A DNA stretch of 58,186 nucleotides, filler included, from Dugesia japonica (Eukaryota): assembly GCA_001938525.1 (NCBI GenBank). It is 5 parts of 5 records of this genome, joined end to end, with 100 filler letters (N's around TTAATTAATTAA, not from the genome) between each part and the next. Parts side by side here need not be neighbours in the genome. Positions count along the whole stretch, not along the records: positions 16,233 to 31,306 come from MQRL01603240.1; 4 more parts are not named here. The stretch is one strand, 5' to 3'. Positions 16,233 through 58,186 of the stretch are shown piece by piece. The notes under the pieces were generated by a model. The model was not told where the DNA came from, made no database searches, and saw only the letters and a list, made by a program, of their open reading frames with translations. Within the stretch, counting starts at the first letter, position 1; each line of letters begins with the position of its first letter. A program made the position numbers and the translations under genes.

Positions 16233-17400
16233 CAACAGCTGTTGCAAAAGCTAGAGAAGCTTCAAAATTAGGTGTAGAAAGACAAAAAGTTGAAGAAGAA
16301 TTAAGACAATTAAAAGAAACAGAAATAAAACTGTTCAACCATTTAAAAGAAAAGGGATTGTAGAAAGTTATAAAGGTAACGGAATTTATTTAAATCCTTA
16401 TCAGGGAAAAGGAATATATAATTTTATTAAGAATTTAATTAATCAATCAAACTTACCTGATTCAGTAATATCAACAATAAACGAAATAGGTAAAAAATAA
16501 AAATTGGGCGGTATTGTTAAAATAAAGGAATCAAAACATGGTTTAGGAATATATATGAGATCTTATTAAACCTTGGGATCTTAACGCCCAATAATTGCGT
16601 TACTAGATATTTAAAAATGTATGAATATAGAATTACTTTATTAAAACAATTAATCAAAGAGCAGGATAAATATAATAATAAAGAATTATCTGAAAAACTG
16701 AATCAACAATTTTAAATGATGTTTTAACTCAACAACAAACACCTACATTAAAAGCACTAGAAAGAATAGTTAAAACATTATTAACAACAAAACTTGCTTC
16801 AATTGAAAATACTAAACAAACTAAACCAGCTATTAAGAATAAAAAGGAAGATCAACAGCAAAAACAACCATTATTAATTTATATTGATAATTATGAACCG
16901 TTTGATATGAAACAGGATATTACTAATTCAATAACGACAACGATTTGCCCTATATTTACTGTTCAAACCTTAAATAATGTTAACTATAGAATTATAACTA
17001 TTAATAAACATCCCTTTATGCTTTATAAAAGAAATGAAATGGGATATATTTATTCACAATTAGAAAAAATTGAATTTGAATTTACAAATAGTTTAGTTTA
17101 ATTCTAGGGAAAAACTCTAATAAATAAGATGAAATTAAGAAATATTTAAATTTATTATCTTTATGCAAAATAACTTAAGGCAATTATATAAAAAGTTTAA
17201 AACATTTTGCTTTATCTAATGATGGACCAATAATTCAAGAAGGAAAAGGCATAATAAGTCATTTAACTTCAAGTAGTAATGATGAAGATGATGACGATAA
17301 TCCTATTAATCTATTTATAGAATTAAATAAATTATTTGCTGCACATAATAATGTTGATAAACAAATCAAAAAAACTTAAAAAGCCTAAAACATTTTCTCA
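16233..17400 (+). pseudogene. Polinton accessory/structural protein remnants with GxG motifs
   Basis: YKGNGIYLNPYQGKGIY, KHGLGIYM, EGKGIISHL and DNPINLFIELNKLFAAH resemble the GxGLYLxP and PxELxxRLxLLxA motifs common in Maverick hypothetical proteins. Confidence 0.55.
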
Positions 17401-17634
17401 ACTAAATACACAGTAAAAAAGTAACCCTAAATAAAGTACTATTGCCTAATGATGCAATTTATGATCCAATTTTTAAATTCCCAAATAAATACATTAGGAT
17501 TAAATTTCGTTACGTCACGGCGGGGGGGGGGGTTACTGATTGTGTGCGTATAAATTAAGCAAATAAAATAAAAATGAATTACAGAATACTTGATTTCTTA
17601 AAAACATTTGGTATTAATCTTAATTTTATTAAAA

Positions 17635-18198
17635 ATGGAGAAAGAACATGATCGTATTTATCCTGATATAAATGAAGAAAATCAATTTAATCGAACTGCA
17701 TCTATAGTTGATTATAAAAATAAATTAAAAACATTAAGAATTAAAGATTTTGAAAATGATTTAACATTCTTAACTGATAAAATAAATCATTATAATAAAT
17801 TATATAGAAGATGGGAAATGTTTGATACAGGCGTCAGATATACCGATATTTTAATAGGATCTTTATTTGGTGCTGCATGAATAACAATAACTATTTTAGC
17901 TACAAGTGGTATAGTTATTTTAACTTTACCTGTTATTATTCTTGGTACATTTCCTTTAACAAGTTCAATTGTTCATGGAATATTAAACATTGGTTTAATT
18001 TAAAGAAGAAAGAAGAAATATAATGATTTAATTAAAGAATTGGAAACAAGTAAACATAAATTATTTCTTTATCAAAAAAGTTTAAATGATAATATATTAA
18101 CTGATGAAGAGATAAATACTAGTAAAACAATCGCTAATGAAATCGAAAACAAAATATTAAAGATGAAAACTGATATTGAAGTTAAAGAAGAAAAATAA
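17635..18198 (+). pseudogene. Polinton/adintovirus-type membrane-hairpin coiled-coil protein
   Basis: MEKEHDRIYPDI...HYNKLYRRW, then two hydrophobic helices (LIGSLFGAA*ITITILATSGIVILTLPVIILG), then RRKKKYNDL...KSLNDNILTDEEI. Two in-frame stops. Confidence 0.6.
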
Positions 18199-18399
18199 AT
18201 AGATAAAGCGTCATCTTCAATGACTAAACGCTTTGCGGTAGATAATACTTTTTTTTAACAAAGCTAAAGGAAATGGAAACTATAATAAATCAACCTACAG
18301 CAAAAGTTCGAAAGAAAGTAAATTAGAAATAGATTATAATTGTTTAAATTGTATAAAATTGAAAATTAATTATAAAAATTAAATTAAATATTTTAAAAA

Positions 18400-19025
18400 A
18401 TGCTTCATAAAAACAATATTTTACATATCGATAAACATATTAAAAGAATTGGTGTTAGTCATAAATTAGAAAATGAAATTAGAAAAGAATATTATAAAAT
18501 TCCACAACACAATAGAATTCTTCAAGCTAATTTCTTAGCCACTTTATATTTAAATTTCTATCTTCCTAGTGAGGTTTATGATAAATTTAACTGTATTGTT
18601 TCTTTATCATCAGGCGAGGAAGATAAAAACTTGATTGAAATATTAAAAGTTATAATGTATATTATGATAATTTATTTAAATGGAATGATCCTCGTGCACT
18701 CTTACTTCAATAATTGGGCGTTGTTGATAATTAATTTATTAAATTTTTATAAAAATGACAAATAAATTTATAGAGTGCGTTTCTAAAGATAATGATTTTA
18801 AATTAAAATTACAAGAAGATGTGAATATGTATAATTCATTACCAATTGGCGGACAAGCAGAAGCAGGAAGAACATTTATAATAAGAGCAAAACAATTTGA
18901 ACAGTGCGTTGATATAATGGGCGGAACAATATATAATCTCGCTTCCGAAAAACATGAATTAGTTAATCAAAATAAACAATTAATTGCTGAAAAACATCAT
19001 TTAACCGATCAATTAAAAGCGAACA
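18400..19025 (+). CDS. Two small hypothetical proteins of the Polinton remnant (18400-18765; 18755 into the gap)
   Basis: ATG starts in an AAAATG context, same strand and tight packing as neighbouring Polinton ORFs; no recognisable motif. Confidence 0.35.
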
Positions 19026-20075
19026 NNNNNNNNNNNNNNNNNNNNNNNNNNNNNNNNNNNNNNNNNNNNNNNNNNNNNNNNNNNNNNNNNNNNNNNNNNN
19101 NNNNNNNNNNNNNNNNNNNNNNNNNNNNNNNNNNNNNNNNNNNNNNNNNNNNNNNNNNNNNNNNNNNNNNNNNNNNNNNNNNNNNNNNNNNNNNGATTTG
19201 CCTGCATAGTAAATCAAATTTATCAATAAAATAATTATAATAATCAAGAAGAATAAATTATAATGACTTAATTTATTTTTTGCTTTATTTTTATCTTTGA
19301 TCAAATACTCTAATTTTCCAAGAGTATAATAAATTTGTTTTATATCCGATTCACCTATTTATAGTTTCATGTGTATTTATTTTTAATTTTTTCTAAATAA
19401 TCTGTATTAAAANNNNNNNNNNNNNNNNNNNNNNNNNNNNNNNNNNNNNNNNNNNNNNNNNNNNNNNNNNNNNNNNNNNNNNNNNNNNNNNNNNNNNNNN
19501 NNNNNNNNNNNNNNNNNNNNNNNNNNNNNNNNNNNNNNNNNNNNNNNNNNNNNNNNNNNNNNNNNNNNNNNNNNNNNNNNNNNNNNNNNNNNNNNNNNNN
19601 NNNNNNNNNNNNNNNNNNNNNNNNNNNNNNNNNNNNNNNNNNNNNNNNNNNNNNNNACTAAGTGTTTTAAATGTTCAAAATTAATATCTGCTGTATCGTA
19701 TTTATTAATAAAAATAATTAATTCTTCATTACTTTGTCCTGAATATAAAGGTTCTAATAAATAACTAGATGATTTTAAACATTGCATATATTTATAGTAA
19801 GAAGCTCTTTTTTTTCATAATTTGTTTCTAATGTAAAAGCATTTAACATTTCTAATATGCTTTTGAATTTTTTATTCTGTTGAAATNNNNNNNNNNNNNN
19901 NNNNNNNNNNNNNNNNNNNNNNNNNNNNNNNNNNNNNNNNNNNNNNNNNNNNNNNNNNNNNNNNNNNNNNNNNNNNNNNNNNNNNNNNNNNNNNNNNNNN
20001 NNNNNNNNNNNNNNNNNNNNNNNNNNNNNNNNNNNNNNNNNNNNNNNNNNNNNNNNNNNNNNNNNNNNNNNNNNN

Positions 20076-23000
20076 GTTTGAATATTATTAAAGTCTTTAT
20101 AATTATTTCCTGTTAATTTAAATTTAATATGTTCAATTGTTTCATATGGTTCAAGTGGATTTATATTATATGGATTGTTAATATTATTTAAAACCATAGC
20201 TTTCTTTTTATCAAGTGTTAGTTTATCTGATTCTAAATATTTCTTAACAAATCCTTTTGTTTTTCCTTTTACGTCACCATTAGATAATCTATAATGATAA
20301 TCTTTTGGAGCAGGGACAACTATCAGTTAATTCTCCTAAATTATTTCCTATTTGTTTATCTATATATCTAACAGGCTTACATTCTTCATTATCACAATTT
20401 TTATTATCGCATGAGTCGTCAATAAACACGCTTGAATCGGTATCACAAAAAATTACTATATTTCCAAGTGATTCTAATATATTATATAATCTTAATCTTG
20501 CATGAGCTGTTGTATATAAAGCTAAATAAATATTTGTTGATTTGTGTGGTTTCTTCCACTCGTCTTTTAATTTATATTTAATCATCCATGTTTCTTTGTC
20601 TAATATTAAAAGATTTAAATCTGTATAATTATTATTATACAATTTTTTACATGCATCGTCATAATTGGTAGGATGTGTTGTATGATCAAAGTCATCATTC
20701 ATTCCAAAATATCCCCATAGACTATTTAAGCAAATTTTAGCTACTTATCTTAAACCTGCATTAAATTTGATTTTATCTATATCTACATCATAAGCTAAAT
20801 TGTCTGCAATGAATTGAATCTTTGTATTACAGTTGCTACCATTAGAACAATCGCTAATACTGTGTTTATCGCAGTTGGGAGGACAATTTTCATTGTGTCT
20901 TTTACATTTACAACCGGAAGCTTCTAATTTATATTTCATAAATACATTTATATAGTCTTTGAATAAACCTTTTATTGTTTTTCCGAAATTAAATAATTCG
21001 TATATATGTAATAATTTATATCCTTTATCTAAAGCTTTATTTACTTCAATTGTTGACCAAGTTCCTGTTATACATCTTTCTTCATCATAATGGCTACATG
21101 GCGCATTTCTATAATTAAAACATTTTGTGCATTGTTTTGTCTTAAATATAGATTCATGTTTATTTTTCGTGCAATGTTCACAAGTATTATCCTTATGTGA
21201 AGCTTGCGCTTTAAATGCACACCTTGTTTTTAATTTATGGTGTGTGCATTTGCTATTTATTTTATTCATGCATGTTTTGCACAATCCAAATAATAATTTA
21301 TAGGCGTTTATTGTTTCTTGTTTAAAGGGCAACACTGGCAAATATAAATTTTTAGGAGGCAGCATTTTACATTTAATTAAGCCAAAATTTGGTTTATCAT
21401 TTTCATTAATTATAACTAATAGATTATTTAGGTTTATATATTTTTAAATAATATTTGTGGATGATCTATCGGATATTCGTTATATTTATTAACAGTTGGG
21501 TATAATGAAACTACATCAACATATCTTATCTTTTGATTATTATTTACTTTATAATATAATTTAAATGGTTCTGTTCTTCCTCCATAAAAAGCATCTTTAG
21601 GCTTTAATTTATTTAAATATGGTTTCGGTTTAAAATTTTTAAAATGAGGATTCTCAAATAAATATCTTTGATATTCACATTCCCATAAAGTAATATATTC
21701 GACCTTTTCTCGTCTATCATTAAAATATCTAATAATATTATTCTTTTTAGTTTGAATTCTTTTATTTAAATATTTCATTGATTTACTTCCTTTCTTACAT
21801 ATTTCTTCTTTCGAATAAAATTTTAAACATCCATGAAAATATCAGCCATTAAATTCATAAACGTAATGAATTTGTTTTGTCGAATCATAATAATATCCAT
21901 CTAATTTATAATTACTTATTGCCTTTTCTCCTCCTCTTTTGGCGTGTTGTATATTTATTTTATTGATACAGCTTAAATATTCGAGCCAATGTAAAGATTT
22001 GGAACAATAAACGTCATCAAAGTCAGGCAGTCTTGGAATTCCTATTGTATTATTATTTATTATAGACATAAATGTTTTGGCACATACTTGCGCTATGGTA
22101 ATATATTGAAAAGGGTCTAAATTCAATAAATTACCATTCGGCATCTTTATATTCACAAAAAAATCTTTGTATATTAAACATCCTTTAGTTAATATCATTA
22201 CACCTGTTAAACAATAATAAAATAATTCATTTTGAAAATTAAATATCTCATTGTTATTTATTCTCTCATCGTGCCAAGCTTTTAATTTTTCTTTAATAGT
22301 TAATTGATCGATTTCTTTATCTTTTGAATTATTACTCATTGTTTCATACCCATAATAATATAAAGCTGGATAAGCGCCAATATAATTCTGATTTGCTATT
22401 GTATTCGCTAAATGAGGAAATTCCCCTTTTGTTCCTTTAAAGCCGAATGTTTAGGGAAATGCTTTTAAAGCGCATAAAGTAAAACATAATGAATCAATAA
22501 ACCTAATATTAAAATGTTTTACCCGAATATGTATAATTTTATTTCCTCTACTTATTTCTTCTAAAGGTAATTTATTTTTAATTAACCATCCTAATATTGG
22601 TTGATTATCATATTCTTTGGAAGAATGAGCTATAAAAATGTAATCTTTAAAAGTTGTGCTAATAAAAAATTTACAGAATGTATCTATTAAAGATTTCGAA
22701 TCACTTATAATTATTTGGTTTATCGCTGCGCATTTAGCCATTATATTATTAACATTTAATTCATCTAATTTCCAATTCATTTCTTCTTTCGTTTTATCAT
22801 TAGTTGTTTCAGAAATTATTTTAAATATAGTTACAATATTTCCTTGAAATTTATAAAATAATTTTCTTAATGAATCATATGCAATTGTGTAGTTCATTTC
22901 GTGATAACCTCTATTTTCNTGNGTTGCTTCAAAATCAAAGAATATATAAGAACTGCTAATTTTAAATTTGCCGCCGTTATTTTTAATATAACACTTGTGA

Positions 23001-24111
23001 TTATTGAATGGTGGCGTATAAAATTCATGACATATAGGGCAATTCTTTTTGCCACAACTATGTTTATTTGGTTTTGAATATTCTTTACCACAATCATTAC
23101 ATTTTACAATTTTCTTCCTTGATAACAATAATCCTATGGAGCACGTATGTTGATTTTGAAAGCTTATTAAGCAATGATGGCAATATTTATTCGATTGTAA
23201 GAATGCGGATATTTTAGCAATACCATTGAAATGATTATTCTCTAGATATATAAATGTTTGTTTCTCGAATGAATCATTTCCTCTATATATGATTGATTAG
23301 TTATTATTACTAGCATAAACTATTATTCTTATATTTAAAAATAACTCGAATCGTTTTAAATCATTAATATTGCTACCATTTTGATTTATAGGAACTCTTG
23401 CCTGTAAATGTAAATTATAAGCATATTCTGTTTGAATGGGATCAGCACGTCTAATATATCTTTTTCTATTATCTCTTGCATCAAAATCAAAATAATTTTT
23501 ATTAGTAAACTTATCATAAATTAATGAAAATACTATTGCTCTAGCTAAACATATAGTATATGTATTATTAATCATATTAACCGAATTTGTAGCAAAGTTT
23601 TGTAATATCTGATTAGTTGACTTAGATGCGCTATGAATACGATCATTTCTTCCTGTACCGCTTGGTGTTGGTATAAGTAGAAATTCAAATTTTNTTGCAT
23701 CAATATCTATTTCTTCTGCTGATTGTAAAACATGATTTAATTTATCAAANAATTTATTTACTATAGTGTCTCTCGTCCTGCGTGAAAATAACTATTTGGA
23801 TTTAATCTAATCATAGCGTGATAAGCAGTTATCTTTACAGTGTAATTAGAATTTTTATTTGTAATGTCGTCTAATATAAATTCTAAACAATTTATAATAT
23901 TTACTTCAGTCATTGTATAAGGAGAAATCGTATATGTGTGAACAATTCATCTATATTGTCTATAATAATGCGAGCCAAGATGGTTGACTAGGTTGAAATC
24001 ATCTATCAGTGTTTCAACAAATAAATCGTCTCTAATTTGATGTTCTTCAAAAGGTAGTGCATTATTAATAGCTGTCCATTCGTCTAAATGTGAATTCGTA
24101 TTTGCTGCCAT
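20076..24111 (-). pseudogene. Protein-primed family B DNA polymerase (pPolB) with OTU-like N-terminus and embedded Vsr-like nuclease
   Basis: VLQS..PTPSGTGR; CLARAIV and NNHFNGI (OTU-like Cys/His); zinc fingers; Exo I FFDFEA; Exo II IAHSSKEYD; RFIDSLCF; KGEFPH; YKLDGY..VYEFNG*YFHGC..LWECE; AFYGGRTE; motif A YVDVVSLYP; motif B KICLNSLWGYFG; motif C FCDTDS; KTKGF. Many frameshifts. Confidence 0.95.
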
Positions 24112-24254
24112 TTTTTTAAAAACTAAAATAAAATTTACGCAAATATTCCCAACTGAAATATAGAAATTGGGATAATTATTTGAAAATAATAAATCGAACA
24201 AAATCACATTCCAGACAAATTTTCACAATTGCATTCGCATTACGAAAAATCGTC

Positions 24255-24476
24255 ACACAAAGTGGCCCGCGTTTGGACGAACATCATTTGAAAATGAAAA
24301 AGCGCGAAGAAATAAATTTTTGGTGAATCGTAGAGCAACAATTAATTCCCTTGTAGACAATAATACTTTTTATAATTATAGAGAAAACTCCCTTTTACAT
24401 CAAAAAGGCGCGAAAAAGGGGGTTATAGCTTTTTCATTTTCAACTGATGGTAGTCCAAACGCGGGCCACCTTGTGT
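24255..24476. mobile_element. 222-bp MITE with about 49-bp terminal inverted repeats, superfamily unassigned
   Basis: Left acacaaagtggcccgcgtttggacgaacatcatttgaaaatgaaaaagc; right reverse-complemented acacaaggtggcccgcgtttggactaccatcagttgaaaatgaaaaagc. Confidence 0.88.
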
Positions 24477-24479
24477 TAT

Positions 24480-27400
24480 CATCTTCCAATTTTTATTTAT
24501 TTAAATTGTATAAAAACCCAAAAATATTGTTATGTTTATTCAAATCTTTTTTAAAAGCAGATACGTGCAAATAAAAAATTTTTAAAAAATAGTTTATTCT
24601 GAAACTTTCTTTAGGATCATAAATTTGTTCATCTACCCATTCATACGCAAATAATTTTCTATTTCGTCTGCGACGTTTTGTTTCAAATTCTGAAGATATT
24701 TTCAATTCACCTGCACTCACTTTAGCTTTCTTTAAACATGATTCAAAACCGGATTTTCTAAATTCTTCAAAATATACCAAAAGNTCTCTTAGATGAGAAA
24801 CGGATACATCTATCTGCATTGTAGAAGTCTGTAGTACTTTGCTGACGAAATTGACTTTTGATAATAAATCATACCAAATAGTCAGGCTAACAATAAATTC
24901 AAATTTGGTGAGTTTCTGCTCAATGGAAATTATTTCACTTTTAATTCTATTATCAGATAATGCATTTGAAATCTCAACTAAATCAGTTTGGAAATATTAA
25001 ATTTGATGCAATACTGCTTTTCCACTTTCTGCACTACATTACCAACGTGTTTCAAATAAGGATTTTTGTGGAAAACATTTAACGTGTTTTTTCAATATGT
25101 CCCAGCGTGATGTTGATGCCGCAAATATATTGTAGATCAATGGTCTGCAACATACGCCCCATCCAGTATTTTATTTTTGCCCTGCAAGACTTTTATTACC
25201 ATCTTGTTATCCGGCCCGCTTTGGTCTTACTTTATTTATACTTTAAAAAATATTAACCTTTCAAAAAATTCAATTACTATTGTGTTTACNGCTAAATTTT
25301 GATTGCCAAATTTTCTGAAGGGTTACTGATTGTTGTTATGTTACGCTTTGTAGTTGTAATAACCAAATTCACATCTGATCTGTTAAAAATATGCAAATTC
25401 ATTTCCAACCAAACTTTTGCTTTTAAAAAAACAATTGACGTTTGGTATTTGTTCTTTGTAAATTCTTCTCAAGTATATGGAAAATTATAATGTTATGTTA
25501 TGAATATACAATTGTAGATTGTAGGTAAGTAGTAATAATTAAAAAAATTTATGAGTATAAGATTATCTAATTATTTATTAATATATTAATTATTTTAATA
25601 TGTTTAACTGAAGTGTAATTTCAAAAGCTAACCAAAAAAGTGAATAACAAAATAACTTAGTAATCGAAATCAAATTTCAATATTGCAACTAGTAAGTTTT
25701 TTATTATTGCAATACCAACTGTTAAATGTTGTCTAAGTTTTAATAGAACTATAAAATCTTTTTGTTCATTAATATTTGCTACATATAAATGTTTTATATA
25801 TTTTTAGCAAACATCAGTATAAAATATTTTATTATAAACGCCTTCAGCAATATTGTCAAAAACGAAAAGTAGATTCGGAAGCAAGGATTTTCAATCAAAA
25901 ATGGACATATGACTATTTTTTCGTAAAATATAATAAGAAACCGTGCTGTCTTATTTGTGGAACGACAGTTGATGTATTTAAGGAATATAATGTACAACGG
26001 GACTATAACTCACAACATAAAAAGGAATACAGCCTGCTTCAAGGTAGTTCAAGAACAACAGAAATAAATAAAATGAAGATTTCTCTGACAAAGCAGCAAA
26101 CTTATTTCCACAAAATATATAACAAAAAGGAATCACTAATACGAGCAGGCTATAAAGTTGCATATTTAATTGCACGCACTGGAAAAACTTACTGAAGGCG
26201 AATTTTTAAAACAATTTATGCAAGAAGTTATTGGTGAAGTTTTACCAGAAAATAAAAATTTAATTTCAGATTTAAGCCTTTCAGCACGAACTATAACCCG
26301 CCGAATAGAACATATAGGGAGTGATCTCTTTGAAACGTTAATAAAACAAGCAAATACGTTTCAATATTTTGCAATTGCTCTGGATGAGAGCAGTGATATT
26401 AATGATACAGCTCGACTTATTATATTTATCCGGGGTATAAATAGTGAATTCGAAGTATGTGAAGAGTAAGCTGCTTTGTGTAGTATGAAAGGTACAACAA
26501 CATCTGCAGTTATATTGGTTCATGTTGAACAAATTATTGAATCATTAGGATCGAATTGGAAAAATCTAAAAGGCATTATAACAGATGGTACCCGCAACAT
26601 GTGTGTCATAAGACTGGTGTCAGTGTAAGCAGGAAAGTGACAGATTCAGGTGGTGAAATTCCAAGCTTTGTGCATGAAAATTTTAAAATGGAAATCAGTT
26701 CTGGATGTAGTAATTTCTATAATAAATCTAATAAGGCGACACGGTTTGAACCACCGCCAATTTCAAGAATTTTTAGCAGAAATTGAATCCGAGTACGGTG
26801 GTGTACTTTATCATACTGATATTAGATGGTTAAGCACTGGTAATGTCCTTAAAAGATTTTTTTTTAAAAGCTATTGATATTTTTTTAGTTAAAAAAAGAA
26901 AAAGCAGAATGGAATTGTTAGATGCGGAATGGCTACTTGATTTAGCTTTTTTAATTGATATCACTTCGTTGATGAATGAATTAAATTTAAAACTACAAGG
27001 CAAAAATAAATTGGTGCACGAATGTCTTTCTGATATTAAAGCTATTGAAATGAAATTACGATTAATCAAAACCAACTTTTTAGGGAAAAAGTTACATAAT
27101 TTACCATTTTGCTCAATTTTTATGGAAAATAATCCATATTTAAATTTACTTAAATTTGGAGATTACATTGATATGCTTCAAAATAAATTGGAATCACNNN
27201 NNNNNNNNNNNNNNNNNNNNNNNNNNNNNNNNNNNNNNNNNNNNNNNNNNNNNNNNNNNNNNNNNNNNNNNNNNNNNNNNNNNNNNNNCAAAAAAAAACT
27301 GCTATAACTGAAAATTTCACGATATCTCCTAAGAGTAAATTCAGATTATGGCAACCACATGAAATGTAAAAAGCTTTTGGATTTTCACGTGAAATATATG

Positions 27401-28740
27401 ATTGCACTCTTTTATACACTTCTTTCATATTGGCTCCGTTTTTGTATCCTTGGTCTCGGCAGTCAAATAGCTTCAGAACTGTGGTATTTAAAACATCCTT
27501 TATTGTCACAGATAAGCCCTTTCTCGTAGTGTCGTATACTCTTACAAATGCTATAAAATATTCCAGAATTTTTACTTTCCTTTCATTTATATCAACACAG
27601 CGTAAGACAACTGATAGTGGGTACTGATGACTAATATCAAGAGTACAATCGAGTACATAGAATAATATTTGAAGTACTTTATCAATTCTATTATTTTATT
27701 TTTAACTTTATTTCCAAAAGAATTAATTAATTCATTTTGAATTAAATGAGACAAATAACAGTTTCTCCTTTTTTTCTTGCATTTTAAATTAAGATGATCT
27801 TTTAAAACCGGATCAAATCGAGCAATCAGTTCTAATAAACAAAAAACGTTGTCATTGTGCGATGAATATAGCGTATCACTACTTCATCAGAAAGCTAAAT
27901 TATGTTCAGATAAATATAAAATTGCTCCGATTGTACGTTGACAAACTTTTTCCCAACAAAGTGTTTCAATCTCAATTATCCGTTCATGTTCTTGATCTCT
28001 TGTATTACCAATGTTTAGATTGTGTTCAGTTTGAAGCCAAGTCTGCATAGATTTTATATGATGCACTGATCGCACATGCGTTTTAAGACTTTGACTCAAA
28101 TGAATCCAATCATTAAAACCATTATTGTATAATGATACATCAGTTTCGGTATCCATAAACATTTTACATGGGAAACACCATACTTTCTTCATAGTTTTCG
28201 AATAAATTAGCCATCGTCTTTTTAGAGTTTGGCCGTTTGTAACTTTTCTATTGTAATATTTTCTAGAGAAAGATCTCTTATTTCTGTCTATAGAAAAATC
28301 GAAATTATTTATTTGAACAGGACCATGCTGAATTAAAGCTATTCTGATGTTTCGATATTTTACTTGGCCATGTACCAGAGTCTTCAAAATCTAATAGATT
28401 AATTTCTTCTGCGGTTTCAATATCAAATTTTTTATTAAAAATCATTACAGGGTTTTATTATGGATCACTATTAAAAATAATATTATTACTTACCGCATTA
28501 TTATTTTCATCAAGTCTGTTACCAGCACCATCACTATCTGTATCTCCAACTTCCATATTGCGACTGTGAGCTTCTACTTCTACATTACTACTGTGAGCGA
28601 ATGCAGTATTAGACACGTTGACGACATATTTTAGCATACTATTACTTTGTTTTTTCTCCAGTAATTCACACTTTAATTTGTTCTTAAGTTTTTCACTTCC
28701 ACTTAAATATTTTATTCCTCGGTCTCTTCCTATTTTGTCA
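24480..28740 (-). mobile_element. hAT transposase pseudogene (ZMYM1-like, TTF-type zinc finger/DUF4371), split by a nested element
   Basis: KRRWLIYSKTMKKVWCFPCKMF..GFNDW..L..H..S..H; YLSEHNLAF; LDCTLDISH; DCRDQGYKNGANM; CGCHNLNL; FAASTSRWDIL; ETRW; FEEFRKSGF; ESFRINYF. Confidence 0.88.
25138..27197 (+). mobile_element. hAT transposon (SPIN/GTF2IRD2-like) nested in the ZMYM1-like hAT
   Basis: End caatggtctgcaacatacg...ccggcccgc after target ttgTAgat. Transposase motifs KRKVDSEARIFNQKWTYDYFF..CLIC..KEYNVQR, LSARTITRR, IALDESSDINDTA, TDG, GLNHRQF..YHTDIRWLS, LAFLIDIT..LNLKLQGK. Right end lost in the N gap. Confidence 0.92.
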
Positions 28741-29157
28741 ACTTAAATGTATACAATGTATAAATATAGGCAAATCTGCCATTTATACCAAATTACTGAG
28801 TATATATTTACCTATTTATCAATTAAAATTATAATATTTATTATATTATATACACAAACACTAGAAATTAATTATTTTTATACAAATTTAGCAAGTTCAA
28901 TTTAAAGACAAAAAAGTTAAATACACGACAACAACCAATTTGGCAGAATTCTCAAAATACATTGCCAAAAATACAAAGTTGGTATATTCTTTGGTTTTTC
29001 AAATATTTTTAAAAACAAAATCAACTGCAACAAAGCCAACTGAAACTATTTATTTGAATTTCTTTAAAAAAAGTTTGAATTTGAATTTCCACTAATAGGG
29101 AGCCACTAAAATTTTTCAATTTAATTAATAAAAATAATCTTAAAATTCTTTTTTTCT

Positions 29158-29355
29158 TAAAAACATATCAGCTAGTTAATTTTCTTGAAAAAACATATTA
29201 GTCATGAAATTTTTCTATAAAAAACATATTAGTCACGTAATGTTTCTAAAAAAATATATTACTAGTAACGATATTCTATACAAAATCTCATTAGCGATGC
29301 AATTTTTAATAAAAACATATTAGTCATGCAATTTTTTCTATAATAATCATATTAA
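29158..29355. repeat. Minisatellite, about 30-bp unit, about 6 copies
   Basis: Consensus close to aaaaacatattagtcatgcaatttttctata. Confidence 0.85.
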
Positions 29356-29464
29356 AATGAGAACATTTATTACAACAAAATGATAAAAACATAGAACTGT
29401 TTTCATTAAAATCATAATTTCATGGAACCTTTCCATATATAACTAATAAGTCTATATCAAAAAC

Positions 29465-29820
29465 TTACCTTGTATTTTCGTTATATGGTTTATAAGTACA
29501 TTATTTGCAAAGTTACCATGTATTATTTATATAGCAACCATGTAATATAGAGATTATGAATGTATTATTACATAGTAACCATGTCTTATAGGGTTTATGA
29601 GTATATTATTTACATAGTTACCTTGTATTATTTACATAGCAACCATGTACTTTAAGGATTATGAATGTATTATTACATAGTAACCCTGTCTTATAGGGTT
29701 TATGAGTACATTATGTGCCTAATTACTATGTATTATTTACATAGCAACCATGTAATATAGAGATTGTAAGTGTATTATTTACATAGTAATCCTGTATTAT
29801 TGGAGTTAATAAATATATTA
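29465..29820. repeat. Higher-order minisatellite: 105-bp period built from about 21-bp subunits
   Basis: gcaaccatg occurs at 29534, 29639 and 29744; subunit close to tgtattatttacatagtaacc. Confidence 0.9.
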
Positions 29821-29959
29821 TTTGCAATTTAACTACGAAATAAGAGGCCACCATGCCAAATGCATGTACATGAAATTAAAACCTTATTTATTTACTTATT
29901 ATAAATAAACTACGAGAAAACAATTATCTAATAAAACATTTATTAATACAACATTTATT

Positions 29960-30475
29960 AATTAAACATTTTTATCTCATATTCTTGAGTCATCTTCAAA
30001 ATTTTGTCTTTTAAAATTTCATAATGGTTCGTGTTTTCATTGAACGGGAAATCCGATTGAAGTTCTATGATGAAATTGTTCATAACTTGAAACACGTAAA
30101 TTCCGGTTGGTGCAATAAATGATTAAAATATTCATTCATCATCAACCGAATATATTCATGAAGAATTTCTGGAAATCTTTCATCTCCAACGCTTATTCTA
30201 AAAAATAATTTAATAAAATAATAAATAATAAATAAAATAAATAATTTTCATAATTTCTGTCTTCAATTTCAGTATAACCACCATCACCATCACTGTCATC
30301 GCCATGAAATGTAATTTCCATCTTTTCATTTTCAATAGTTTTTTCTTTTCATTAATATTTTCATTCCGTTATCATTGCCTTCCATTATATTTTCTATACC
30401 TTCATGGTTAATGTCATTTTCAAATTCTTCCCCTCCTTGGACAGTTTTTTCAAAAAATAATTCACAAGTATTCAT
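29960..30475 (-). pseudogene. Small acidic orphan gene remnant, possibly two exons
   Basis: ATG at 30475 (MNTCELFFEKTVQGGEEFENDINHEG...GDDSDGDGGYTEIED), then an AT-only tract ending ttttttag (about 30197-30255), then ISVGDERFPEILHEYIRLMMNEYF. TATA about 40 bp upstream. Confidence 0.3.
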
Positions 30476-30504
30476 TTTGTAAAAAGTGAATTTATTTTAA
30501 AAAA

Positions 30505-30735
30505 CAGGTCCTACTTATATAAACCCGATAACCAATCATATCAATTATAGTAAATATAAACCAAAAGAGACTCATAAATAATGAGTATGTGTGTATCGGA
30601 ACTAGTATATAAACCCAGTAACCAATCATAACTGTTAAGACAAATATTAACAAATCATATCAATTATAGTAAATATTAACCAATAGGAACTCGTAAATAA
30701 CGAGTATGTGTGTATCCCAACAAGTATATAAGCAA
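30505..30735. promoter_or_regulatory. Duplicated CCAAT/TATA-rich intergenic module, possible divergent promoter
   Basis: tatataaaccc.gtaaccaatcata occurs twice, aatcatatcaattatagtaaatat and gagtatgtgtgtatc occur twice; lies between divergent small ORFs. Confidence 0.35.
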
Positions 30736-31306
30736 AGGTTTACATAACACTAATCACTTTTACAACTCAAAAATGCAAGAAAATCACCTCACTAAAGAAA
30801 ACGTTTCAACAATAATTCTGGAACTTAGGAAAATTACAGATTTCCATAATTACAAGATGTTCTTTTTGAAGACTCTAATTATCTATGACTTCAAAGTAAT
30901 TAATTTTTATTTCATTATAAATTATTATTTTATTTCAAAAACCAGTTTCAATAAAAAATGCAAATTTAGTTTGGTTCAATCTGGAATTCATGAGAAGGAT
31001 AGAAATAGATTAAGCAGGCAAATTGAAGTCAATGAGACTATTGATATAGCCTTTAAAGAACAAGATGGACACAATTATGAAGACGACAGTCAATAGATGA
31101 TTCCAGTGGAGATTAAAGGCTTTAAGAAGTCCATTAATTCGGTATGAGTTATATGGAAAGTTAAAAATATTGCAAATAAGATCTAAATTTGTTTACTTAA
31201 TGTTTACTTAGTGTTATTTTTTTTATTGAAATAAAAATTTATGAAAAAAGTCTTGTTAGATTTAATTATAAAAACAATTTTTAATACAATATTTTAAAAA
31301 ACTAAA

Positions 31307-46842: not shown

Positions 46843-47851
46843 TTTAATAACTTCCATATTATTTCTACCTGACATCCATCATTTAAGATACTTATTGAAC
46901 AATTAAAAAATTTTCTGTTATATGGGAGGACATATTAAAATTTTTAAAACTTAGGTAGGGCATGGCATGAAAAAAATGGGAAACACTTATATAGTGCAAA
47001 CATGGAAAGATACAGGATATTTCATGTTAATTTTTAAGAAAGCATGTAAATATGTAGTTTATAAGAAATTTTATAATGTTTGATAAGTAAATTTTTAAAT
47101 TAGATTCCAGTGAGTTTTTATAAATAAATTATAGATTGCTGAAATTTTAAACCCGTTTACACTTTCAGATTTAGTTTAGTTGTGCTTAATAGTTTATTTT
47201 TATCAATTTTATAATATTGCCTATTAATTTTGGAATAGTTAATACAAATTTTGGAATATATTGTACCAATTTTGAAATAGTTTTTGCAAATTTTTTGAAA
47301 AGGGTGTAATATTTTTGAAATTTAACCAATCCATAATTAGAGAATAAATTATTACTGTTATGGGATTAAATAAAATCAGCCAATATCTTAAAATTATTAT
47401 TGATCGTACAAAGACAAGTTGATATCTTGATTAACTTATATTTAATTGTTTTATTGCAGTACAAATTAGTAAAAGGCCTATAACTTTTAATACCGTATGT
47501 TTAGCAGAAACGGCGATAATTACCGTTATTTCAGACACTTAATTTAACAAAATTAATTCATACTCCAATTGTTTTTATGAATGTTTGGTTTTAAGATGTT
47601 TTATGTAGTTTATTATAATTATATTTCTCTACTCAAATCACAAATTTCTTCTAAATTTCAATAATAATTCTTTAAAGTTCTTTATTAAAAATAATAAATA
47701 ATTATTTTGATAATAAAGAGGAAATATTCCTTCTAAATCAAAACAATTTTTTTGAAACTTTTTAATTTTGAATTTCTTTTAATAGACTAATTAAAGAATA
47801 TTTGTTAGCTTAGATATTTAAAGATATAGGAAATTGTAATTTAATATTTCA

Positions 47852-48346
47852 ATGAAAAAACTTTTATTCGTAATTTTATTGGCGGGGTTTATAATATTTG
47901 CAATTAATGCATTTCAGCGTAATAAATTAAATTTTAATTTTAATAACTTGAAATTTTTCTTAGAATTCGGCAGAGAACTTGAATGTTATCAATGTAATTC
48001 ATTAACGCAACCACATTGTTCTGATTTTTTTGACAATCAGACAGTGATTTTAGAAAGATGTCCAAATGACGGTAAAAATTATTCCATGTGCAGAAAAATT
48101 ATCCAAGAACTATATTATGATGGAGTTTGGGAACGAAGATATTACAGAGATTGTGCAGTTACTGGTTATATCGGTGCAGAAGAAGGTCGTTGGTGCACAG
48201 ATCGAATGGGAACTCTTCGTGTAAAAGTGAGATATTGCCACTGCAACAATAAACAAGGTTGTAACAGTGGATCATCGATTTCAATTGGAATTATTTTGAT
48301 GATATTTTCATCATTTCTTGCAATTTTTACAGTGACTCCTACATAA
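47852..48346 (+). CDS. Ly6/uPAR three-finger protein, quiver/sleepless-like, signal peptide plus GPI-type tail; probable intron 47919-47963
   Basis: Hydrophobic N-terminus; LECYQCNS..CSD..C..CRK..YRDC..C..YCHCNNKQGCN (10 Cys, terminal CN); hydrophobic C-terminus; AT-rich GT...AG 45-mer (gtaata...ttcttag). Confidence 0.92.
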   Translation: MKKLLFVILLAGFIIFAINAFQRNKLNFNFNNLKFFLEFGRELECYQCNSLTQPHCSDFFDNQTVILERCPNDGKNYSMCRKIIQELYYDGVWERRYYRDCAVTGYIGAEEGRWCTDRMGTLRVKVRYCHCNNKQGCNSGSSISIGIILMIFSSFLAIFTVTPT

Positions 48347-55419: not shown

Positions 55420-57828
55420 GATCATATGCTTTGCTTATGTTCTTATCTATCCACACTTTTTGTCGTCATTACTTTTAAGAGCTAATTTGAACTCATAAAA
55501 CTAAAAAGCTGGTGGTTTATAGACCCTATTCTAAATTGATTAACTAAAACTATTATTTTCGTTGTAGCAATCAAGATATGACTGATGTGTTATGCCTGTA
55601 TTTTTCCAATGATATTCCATTAGCTTTCATGCTAGCTTTTTCCTTGAGAAGACTATAACATTTTGATCTGAGGAAATATCCCTTCTTTATATATTTCACC
55701 TTTACTCTCATCAACTACTGAATTCAGGTCTATGTTATAAAGAGGATCACTTGTTTTATAGTTTAATGTATCCAATAATCTATCTTTTACCATTAACTCC
55801 AACAATTAATCCAGTTTAATATCCTTAACCTCTAAAAGAAAACTGTCAGTATATCACCAGCTACTATATTTATCACACATTTCTTCTCTCTTCGATACTT
55901 TTCAAGCTTCACATACTGTAATTGATACATTCTTAGTTTACTCAGATCGAGTACAGTCTGTCCAATGTAGCTGGGTCGATCCAAACATATCACCTCCTTG
56001 TTGAGTTGAGCAGCTATTAAATCGTTGTCTATTTTTATTGTTCTTCTAAAATTCGGTGTAGAAGTGTAAGTAATCAACTTTTTGGCAGAATAACAAATCC
56101 TCAGGTTAATTCTTTTCTTTAAATTTTCTACAATTTTTCCATATAGACTATTATTTAATAGCTTGTAGTAGTTCTTCTCCAATTCGGTTTACTGTGTGAT
56201 CTTAGCTCTTTATTCATATCTATGTATTTTTTAAATATGTTAGCCTGACTAAACGTTTACAGCTTTATGTACCTTTGTCACTTGCACACCTAATTGTAGG
56301 TACATCTGCAAGAGCCTCCAGTGAACTACATAATTCTTCTTTGGGTAATGTGTTAAGAGTAATTTCTGCTACCGGTAGATCATCCAAATAATTATGTAAC
56401 TCATTACGAATTACAACATCAACCTCTAGTACATATCCATATGACAACGAAACCAAGTCCATTCTCCTACAATCTTCGAATATTTCATCCAATCAGAATG
56501 TACCCACACAGAATCTTTGTATGGCAACTTTTCACTTAATGCCCACCCATTCAAATTATTAATATCAATTTACAGAAGCTCTGTATTTTCATCAGATTTA
56601 ACATGATGCTTTATGACAAAAGTGAGTCCTCTTCTGATTCCTCCTACAAAAAACGTGTACATGTCATTATCTGTTAATAATTGTATAGGCTCATCAAGTG
56701 TCAACAGTGCAGATGCCCAACTCATCCCCGGAATACCAAAGAAATTCAATGGTTCTAATCAATTATTTTCCAACGATTTTTGATAAAATTGTTGGAAAAC
56801 GTCAGCCAACAAAAAGATATCCAACTTTAAATATATCATCATATAATCTAACAAGTTATTACATCCGGTAATTTCCCACATTTTTAATGCTTTCGCGTAT
56901 GATTCTTTACTCAATTCATTTCATCTCGGTGGCATGCTTGTTGTTTCTTCTAATATTTCCAAACTGGTGGCAAAGTTATATGGAAATATTCCCTTTGATG
57001 AAATTATCCGACTATCATTAAACTCTTTTGTTGTTAACGGTGTTGTTTGTATTGATTTTACAGCTGCATCTAACGATGAGTTGATAAATTGATAAGAATC
57101 AATAAATCTGATGGTAGCTGATCTCTTTTGATTAACCATGAGAGAGAAATTTCTCACTGGTTGTATGTATACATTTTATTTCCCAATTTGAAAATCTACA
57201 AAGTCTATACTTGAGAATATGATGTAGATCATATCCTCTGATATTATGAAAAACCACTGGTAACTGCTTATAAATTTTACTGTTTATATTACAACTATTG
57301 CATTCAGCACCCTTATATTCCACTGTAAAGTGATCATGATCATGAACTGGCTGAACTATTGATTTTCTACATAAATAGAATGTGTTAGCGGTAGAAAATG
57401 CAATTTCTTGGGCAGGAGTTATTATCATTTTCTTATTCCAATGTTCCAAATAGTAAGGATATACTACATTATTAGTAATATATTCCACTTCTTCTAAAAA
57501 CTCGAAAACACAGTCATTACCGATAAATTGATTGTATTTAGTCTCATTTGTGTAGTTGTTTACCAACAGTAGTCCAGCTGAAAATGTCAGATGTTTCTGA
57601 TGATAAATCGGTTCCTTTGGCAAAACTGATTCAAAATCAGCATATAAGACAAATGGTGTAGTTATCATCTTTAAAAAATCCTTGAACTCCAAATTAGGAT
57701 TTGTTAGCGTATTGCACATTGTCGTACCAGTTTGAATTTTATTGCAAAGTGGTTCATGTGTCTCAAAATAATTTTCACTATAAAATCCGTTGAAACCATT
57801 TGGACGCCAAATTGACTGAATTCGCACA
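55420..57828 (-). pseudogene. Protein-primed family B DNA polymerase (pPolB), endonuclease-VII-containing Polinton type
   Basis: PFVLYADFESVL; VHDHDHFTVEYKGAECNSCNIN (EndoVII/HNH); PVVFHNIRGYDLH; IRFIDSYQF; KGIFPY; YLKLDIFLLADVF; IDINNLNGWALSEKLP; YKLLNNSLYGK.VEN; IGQTVLDLSKLRMY; GD.TDSF; FLRSKCYS; NDDK. Confidence 0.95.
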
Positions 57829-58186
57829 AGTAGGGGGATAGAAGCACACGGGCCCCACTCACATAGCGCTGGGCGGAACCCCCCCCGGGGGCTCGGAAAC
57901 ACATTACGTTGAGCTGCGTTTTTTTAAATCGATAATTATTGATTATCGATTTTTGATCTGATTGATTATTGATTTTTGATCTGATCTTTTTTTTTGATCG
58001 GCTTAGATTTTTTTGATCGGATCAATTTTTTTTGATCGGATCAGTTTTTTTTATCTTTTTTTTACCTTTTTTTAAATCTTTTTTTTACCTTTTTTTTTTA
58101 CCTTTTTATTAGGAGTGAATTTTTTTTAATTGTTTTTTTTTGTTTTAATAATTAAAATTTTTTGTTTAAATTAATGTAGTCTTTTT
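57829..58186 (+). mobile_element. Element terminus starting AGTAG, inserted in or abutting pPolB; probable Polinton TIR
   Basis: Homologous to 40188-40382 starting exactly at AGTAG; poly-C/poly-G palindrome; tttttgatc(gg/tg)atc subterminal repeats. Confidence 0.65.

Follow-up and report, generated by a model that had tools for sequence, protein, structure and literature searches.

The DNA polymerase (protein-primed, family B; pPolB) of a Polinton-type element in Dugesia japonica carries three Cys/His-rich spans, in the TPR1 subdomain, at the fingers tip and in the palm loop after motif C. As an elaboration of a known enzyme the spans are real, have been under selection and characterise a clade; the protein itself varies only modestly from one already known. 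Judged from the ligand patterns of copies and relatives, the three loops would be structural zinc modules with some benefit, added stepwise on surface loops within one clade; this reading is given a probability of about 0.6.

Broken gene and its three spans

The window, i.e. the whole stretch of DNA analysed, is 58,186 nucleotides long. The part studied occupies positions 16233-31306 (15 kb) and belongs to D. japonica record MQRL01603240.1. Features are as follows.

20114..23994, minus strand: decayed Polinton-type pPolB gene with N-terminal region, exonuclease and polymerase (tblastn and Pfam DNA_pol_B_2)
21497..21517, minus strand: polymerase motif A, aligned to phi29 222-272 through the family profile
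21090-21281, minus strand: span 1, in TPR1, 64 aa with 9 Cys in the window copy (phi29 profile alignment)
20829-20912, minus strand: span 2, fingers tip, 28 aa with 6 Cys in the window copy
20712..20738, minus strand: polymerase motif B, just downstream of the in-frame stop 20745-20747
20433..20450, minus strand: polymerase motif C (profile alignment to phi29)
20379-20420, minus strand: span 3, palm loop after motif C, 14 aa
17806..18153, plus strand: hydrophobic ORF remnant (tblastn, 83% identity to L049:1566-1943)

Residues 94-1322 of the homolog P0002 align to the gene in four frame segments, from 23994 to 20114, at 31-52% identity (tblastn). Three frame changes occur over the whole gene, and in-frame stops are located at 23297-99, 22451-53, 21842-44 and 20745-47. 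The window copy is a dead, broken genomic copy. All three spans are contained in one minus-strand frame, 21443 down to 20289, whose sole in-frame stop (20745-20747) lies between spans 2 and 3. Frame changes near the spans are at about 21404-21458 and about 20320, none inside spans 1-3. The peptides quoted in the initial annotation are all found on the minus strand in one frame, and the three Cys/His-rich spans are thus real. The Pfam DNA_pol_B_2 match flanks them on both sides. Motifs A, B and C and the PF03175 match are present, as in protein-primed family B polymerases. Cys makes up 18 of 106 span residues versus 5 of the remaining 248 (window copy). Composition predicts 2% Cys per codon (binomial P 4e-12, indicative as the spans were picked post hoc).

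Further CxxC-rich zinc-finger-like motifs, present also in P0002 and P0178, occur at about 22960-23200 (minus strand), directly before exonuclease motif I. The Cys-containing motif at 23551 presumably resembles the vOTU helix. Between exonuclease and polymerase, at about 21700-21900 (minus strand), lies a VSR-like nuclease segment; the family profile matches Vsr weakly (E 0.16-0.22).

Copies in the genome and their element

The genome contains at least 154 pPolB matches. Forty loci were examined and 3 duplicates dropped, leaving 37 copies in two subfamilies whose mutual identity is about 65-73%: A (22, including the window copy) and B (15). Each span is near-constant in length in every copy covering it. 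Conserved ligands in the 37 copies are 12 in span 1, 9 in span 2 and 4 in span 3. Span 1 follows the pattern CxxC-x7-CxH(H)-x5-C-x7-H-x4-CxxC-x13-CxxC-x7-CxH. Most copies have 7 Cys and 2 His in span 2 and C-x4-C-x-H-x2-C in span 3; one ligand of each of these two sets is absent from the window copy.

Cross-subfamily identity above 60% is reached by 22 of 23 added Cys/His columns versus 43 of 79 other span columns, with one reference per subfamily and with ligand columns set by majority, a definition that favours the result. The exception is one His, present in subfamily A only. When columns are defined from one copy alone, 16/16 Cys/His are conserved versus 42/80 others. Both synonymous codons are used at 23 of the 26 conserved ligand columns, so that the residue is kept and not the codon. 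Between subfamilies, dN/dS (Nei-Gojobori, bootstrap over codon columns; copy pairs not independent, values inflated by post-insertion decay) is 0.24 (0.14-0.37) for spans 1-3 together and 0.17 (0.12-0.23) for the core. Highest in span 1, 0.35 (0.17-0.57); 0.14 in span 2 and 0.07 in span 3, with synonymous sites of the latter two near saturation (pS 0.69 and 0.71). The kept ligand columns and the dN/dS of about 0.24 show that the spans were under purifying selection. The initial annotation had proposed comparing Cys positions between independent copies; across the 37 copies they proved conserved (22/23 columns, dN/dS 0.24).

Breaks at many points of the window copy, and a GC content of 26% in the stretch, might be expected if the spans were an artefact of decay, assembly or AT-rich composition. 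The same ligands are found in 37 copies and in long open frames from other sources, which leaves such an artefact a negligible probability. Chance or decay as the origin of the spans was rejected on the conservation in 37 copies together with the Cys enrichment.

The stretch that holds the window copy gave no integrase, capsid or ATPase. The hydrophobic ORF also adjoins two other pPolB copies (L049 and L037); its remnant is probably a gene of the same element. A retrovirus-like integrase lies beside L041, a copy of the same subfamily (38% to the integrase of the relative L057, E 1e-14, tblastn; Pfam rve E 0.044, below the cut-off), and is present in the relatives L057 and L060. Further fragments below the Pfam cut-off are a double-jelly-roll capsid in the L049 neighbourhood (E 8e-5) and a C5 protease in that of L050 (E 0.015; 31% to the candidate protease of L060, tblastn). 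A packaging ATPase was not found in the loci of this genome examined. L060 and L067, with a 12-ligand span 1, have genes for double-jelly-roll capsid and A32 ATPase, and L060 also for integrase.

hAT-like transposase fragments with weak DUF4371 and DUF659 matches (24496-28390, minus strand; 25773-26192, plus strand) and a Spin-doc zinc finger are directly upstream of the pPolB gene and are probably nested insertions. A protein kinase remnant (L041:6946-7944, plus strand), about 1 kb from the Polinton integrase fragment, is either cargo or a neighbouring host gene. Accessory domains occur in the Polintons of two relatives (L067:11136-12368 and L060:6690-7985, both plus strand): one has an F5/8 type C (discoidin) gene, and in the other the integrase is fused to a phospholipase A2-like domain. 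At 57132-57923 (minus strand), in another part of the window, a frame of 263 aa matches Endonuclease VII weakly (E 0.0025) and has exonuclease-like motifs; it resembles a second Polinton polymerase, Beta or pPolB2-type. A Quiver/u-PAR/Ly-6-like host gene is located at 47840-48343 (plus strand; E 2.6e-12).

Relatives and order of gain

Outside homologs were 165 in number (16 from one protein search and the best 150 of 4003 from another, one shared); selected by likeness to the query, the set over-represents close kin. A further 81 loci were fetched with a clade-built alignment. The viral contig search gave 0 relatives with a single query and 1 distant relative with the alignment.

Span 1 has a median of 23 aa and 3 Cys in 124 scored outside homologs, versus 72 aa between the same anchors in the window copy. 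A short single CxxC...CxH/C unit, expected as the normal state by the initial annotation, occurs in TPR1 of 109/124, and two such units in 7/124. Expanded in 12 of 65 scored loci of the 81-locus set; a looser pattern adds three more carriers. Ligands number 4 in most pPolBs and 8 in P0002, P0178, P0060, L057 and L066. Twelve occur in the window lineage and in P0003, P0005, P0018 and L058-L078, with the middle four spaced differently. Over 26 aligned rows, with identities as low as 42%, the core of eight TPR1 ligands varies little or not at all.

Span 2 has a median of 42 aa in 127 scored homologs versus 59 in the window copy. Four or more Cys are present in 6/127, and the span is Cys-rich in 3 of 77 scored loci of the 81-locus set. 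Cys number 4 in P0029, L092 and L066, 5 in P0002 and P0022, 9 in P0178 and 7 in the window lineage; the basal form has four Cys and no His. The usual form had been described as WPxxC-like: a W/F/Y/L-Pro start is indeed common (92/127), but WPxxC-like forms are found in only 38/127. P0151, an unrelated pPolB, has its own, apparently convergent 5-Cys cluster at the fingers tip.

Span 3 has a median of 21 aa in 126 scored homologs versus 35 in the window copy. No Cys in 89/126, in agreement with the expectation that this loop normally lacks a Cys cluster; three or more Cys in 1/126, in a different pattern. Cys-rich in 0 of 63 scored loci of the 81-locus set. Relatives with a Cys-rich span 2 have at most one loop Cys here, and the full CCHC set was found in this genome only, among the sequences compared. 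The unrelated pPolB P0071 has its own CxxC...CxxC after motif C, apparently convergent.

Compared with typical pPolBs the spans are expanded, far exceeding most homologs in length and Cys content. By sequence comparison all three are uncommon in the family, yet spans 1 and 2 are not private to this genome; their uniqueness to it was rejected because carriers occur among the outside homologs and loci. As far as seen in the sequences compared, the span 3 CCHC set and the 7-Cys form of span 2 are limited to this genome. Gain by this lineage, as initially annotated, would hold for span 3 and for the 7-Cys form of span 2. Span 1 is expanded across a wider clade, and Cys-rich forms of span 2 occur across a nested subclade. 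Most pPolBs lack all three additions, which are therefore dispensable for the family.

When the spans were left out of tree building, every carrier fell in one 26-row branch (SH-aLRT 96, quick search), and the Cys-rich span 2 marked a nested 10-row branch (SH-aLRT 96). The carriers form a clade, which may be an undescribed polintovirus taxon as the initial annotation suggested. Inclusion of the spans gives the same picture, with branches of 18 and 12 rows. The 26-row branch also includes two proteins with a single-site TPR1, P0023 and P0024. The nested branch includes P0022, annotated from the mussel Mytilus coruscus; P0178, from a clam-associated bacterial assembly, is probably host carry-over. 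Rooting is weak, as no single branch separates the outgroup from the rest. The lineage of the window copy is placed within the proteins that have 8 ligands and away from the other group with 12, so that its third TPR1 site was likely gained separately, the alternative being repeated loss.

Single-site units resemble unit 1 in their front half (68/79) and unit 2 in their back half (55/79), the rows being related; this would fit additions nested inside the ancestral site. No DNA repeats were found in span 1 of the window copy. One 14-nt pair, 150 nt apart, lies over both CxH units of L024 but is too faint a signal to establish a duplication. Leftovers of mobile domains once inserted here (homing endonuclease, intein or host zinc finger) would have precedents in the HNH and VSR inserts described for Polinton pPolBs in the available parts of 10.1101/2023.08.22.554363 and PMC11161782. 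The graded series 4-8-12 and 4-5-7-9 point instead to local growth, the spans are too short for a nuclease, and Pfam gave no family besides DNA_pol_B_2 at E below 0.05 in the 26 span-1 rows; such remnants are very improbable.

It is possible, with clearly lower probability than zinc modules of some benefit, that the spans are tolerated decoration, in which a Cys-rich insert folds round zinc and selection keeps the fold only, with no function added. Cys-free insertions in the same loops of other lineages (P0041, P0095, P0106, P0076, P0124) indicate that these loops tolerate extra sequence. Decoration would also agree with the single-site members inside the clade, with the variable ligand spacing of the third TPR1 site between lineages and with Cys clusters that are unrelated but occupy the same loops, span 2 in P0151 and span 3 in P0071. 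It is opposed by the length and many non-ligand residues fixed across both subfamilies at dS near 1, by the (near) invariance of the eight-ligand TPR1 core noted above, and by repeated independent gains, which suggest benefit.

Predicted fold, metal sites and known polymerases

The single-sequence PDB search gave nothing useful; the family profile search reached phi29 polymerase (E 1e-11). No eukaryotic pPolB was found among solved structures by these sequence and profile searches. In the profile alignment, span 1 lies between phi29 residues 272 and 352, i.e. in TPR1 with the subdomain limits that we assume for phi29, span 2 between 376 and 378, ahead of motif B at the tip of the fingers, and span 3 within the loop following motif C. 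The earlier location of the spans around TPR1 and the palm is correct for spans 1 and 3, respectively, and has to be changed to the fingers tip for span 2.

The copy folded was L024, a natural stop-free partial copy, with an alignment of 130 rows. Mean pLDDT of the model is 86 and pTM 0.89; by 10-residue block, pLDDT is 67-96 in span 1, 47-73 in span 2 (47-51 over most of it) and about 90 in span 3. The model aligns to phi29 polymerase with Z 22.9 and rmsd 3.1 (321 aligned; next family Z 11.6) and also matches tectivirus, adintovirus and bidnavirus pPolB models. The predicted fold is phi29-like with TPR1 and TPR2, its core intact. Span 1 folded alone is an elongated hairpin (mean pLDDT 58.6, insert 69-87). 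The isolated model has no Foldseek match at E 0.001 and aligns only to generic helical hairpins (VIA-align best Z 4.7, rmsd 7.2); matches as poor as these do not show a new fold.

Mixed Cys/His ligand sets are typical of zinc. Zinc would fit spans 1 and 3 better than Fe-S, because their ligands come in fours (span 1: 4, 8, 12; span 3: 4) and in mixed Cys/His sets. Span 1 likely has three predicted zinc sites, with one as the ancestral state, and span 3 likely one; span 2 likely holds up to two predicted metal sites. The total would rise from one to perhaps six. Zinc modules are less well supported by span 2, with Cys counts (4, 5, 7, 9) that are not multiples of four and a poor model (pLDDT 47-51), and by the single-site P0023 and P0024 inside the clade.

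An Fe-S cluster in one or more spans, most plausibly span 2, could sense redox state and is unlikely. Span 2 is Cys-dominated with CxxxC repeats, has a basal form of four Cys without His and modelled poorly, all of which favour such a cluster. Its growth to 5, 7 and 9 Cys, which we take to be metallothionein-like, argues against it, as do the CxH and CCHC sets of spans 1 and 3 and the lack of likeness to a known Fe-S domain in the span searched (span 1). Family B precedents are found in Pol epsilon (CysX) and in Pol delta and zeta (CysB) (PMC7544198, available part).

With structural zinc modules as the preferred reading, TPR1 would have started from a single CxxC...CxH site, within which two more sets of four ligands were added one after the other, so that the arm would now run out and back over about 60 residues. 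At the fingers tip a 4-Cys cluster would have arisen and been enlarged to 5, 7 or 9 Cys in different lineages; the last gain, in the lineage of this genome, would be the CCHC knuckle that follows motif C. Serving as a rivet, the metal would allow small inserts to fold while the catalytic core stays undisturbed. The phi29 TPR1 loop 304-314 binds terminal protein and DNA (PMC6921018, available part); by analogy, and speculatively, the most likely use would be to enlarge the basic surface with which TPR1 holds DNA or the terminal-protein primer. More doubtful is a wider proposal, in which an animal Polinton clade would repeatedly have built metal-stabilised arms on TPR1, fingers tip and palm, the TPR1 arm giving specificity for terminal protein or a host factor through a new surface, and the cluster at the fingers tip moving with each nucleotide and linking synthesis to metal or to the redox state.

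The graded series (1, 2 or 3 TPR1 sites; 4 to 9 fingers-tip Cys; 0 or 1 site after motif C) is a natural experiment in zinc-module accretion, and the spans are a simple sequence marker for a Polinton clade across distant animal hosts. No mechanism is changed unless a function of the modules is shown. Cys/His clusters are known from the adenovirus polymerase. No description of the spans was found in the text of the literature searched, where figures or supplements may show the motifs in alignments. The available parts of 10.1101/2023.08.22.554363, PMC11161782, PMC3511435, PMC8502044, PMC7544198, PMC6921018 and PMC13215967 describe neither the spans nor the single TPR1 CxxC...CxH unit of most Polinton polymerases.

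phi29 DNA polymerase (PDB 2pzs, 1xhx) has the same fold with TPR1 and TPR2. Its chain turns at the fingers tip within one or two residues (376 to 378), versus about 35 residues in Polinton enzymes and about 50 in this one, and it has no Cys cluster after motif C. CysA, CysB and CysX of eukaryotic family B polymerases are likewise Cys-based metal sites added to such an enzyme, but differ from the spans in location, with CysA and CysB in the C-terminal domain and CysX at the P-domain base (PMC7544198, available part). The HNH/VSR insertions in Polinton pPolB2 are also clade-specific, HNH with zinc-binding Cys, but are whole nuclease domains, whereas the spans are modules of 14-64 aa in a graded series (10.1101/2023.08.22.554363, available part). 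Another close system is the Polinton/Maverick pPolB of the Alpha class (OTU + pfam03175; Starrett et al., PMC8502044, available part), with a PF03175 match, about 1300 aa and the same motifs. The single TPR1 CxxC...CxH is common to both, and relatives whose span 1 is expanded belong to elements that carry genes for integrase, A32 ATPase and double-jelly-roll capsid; the present enzyme differs in having as many as five further predicted metal sites, spread over three loops of its polymerase domain.
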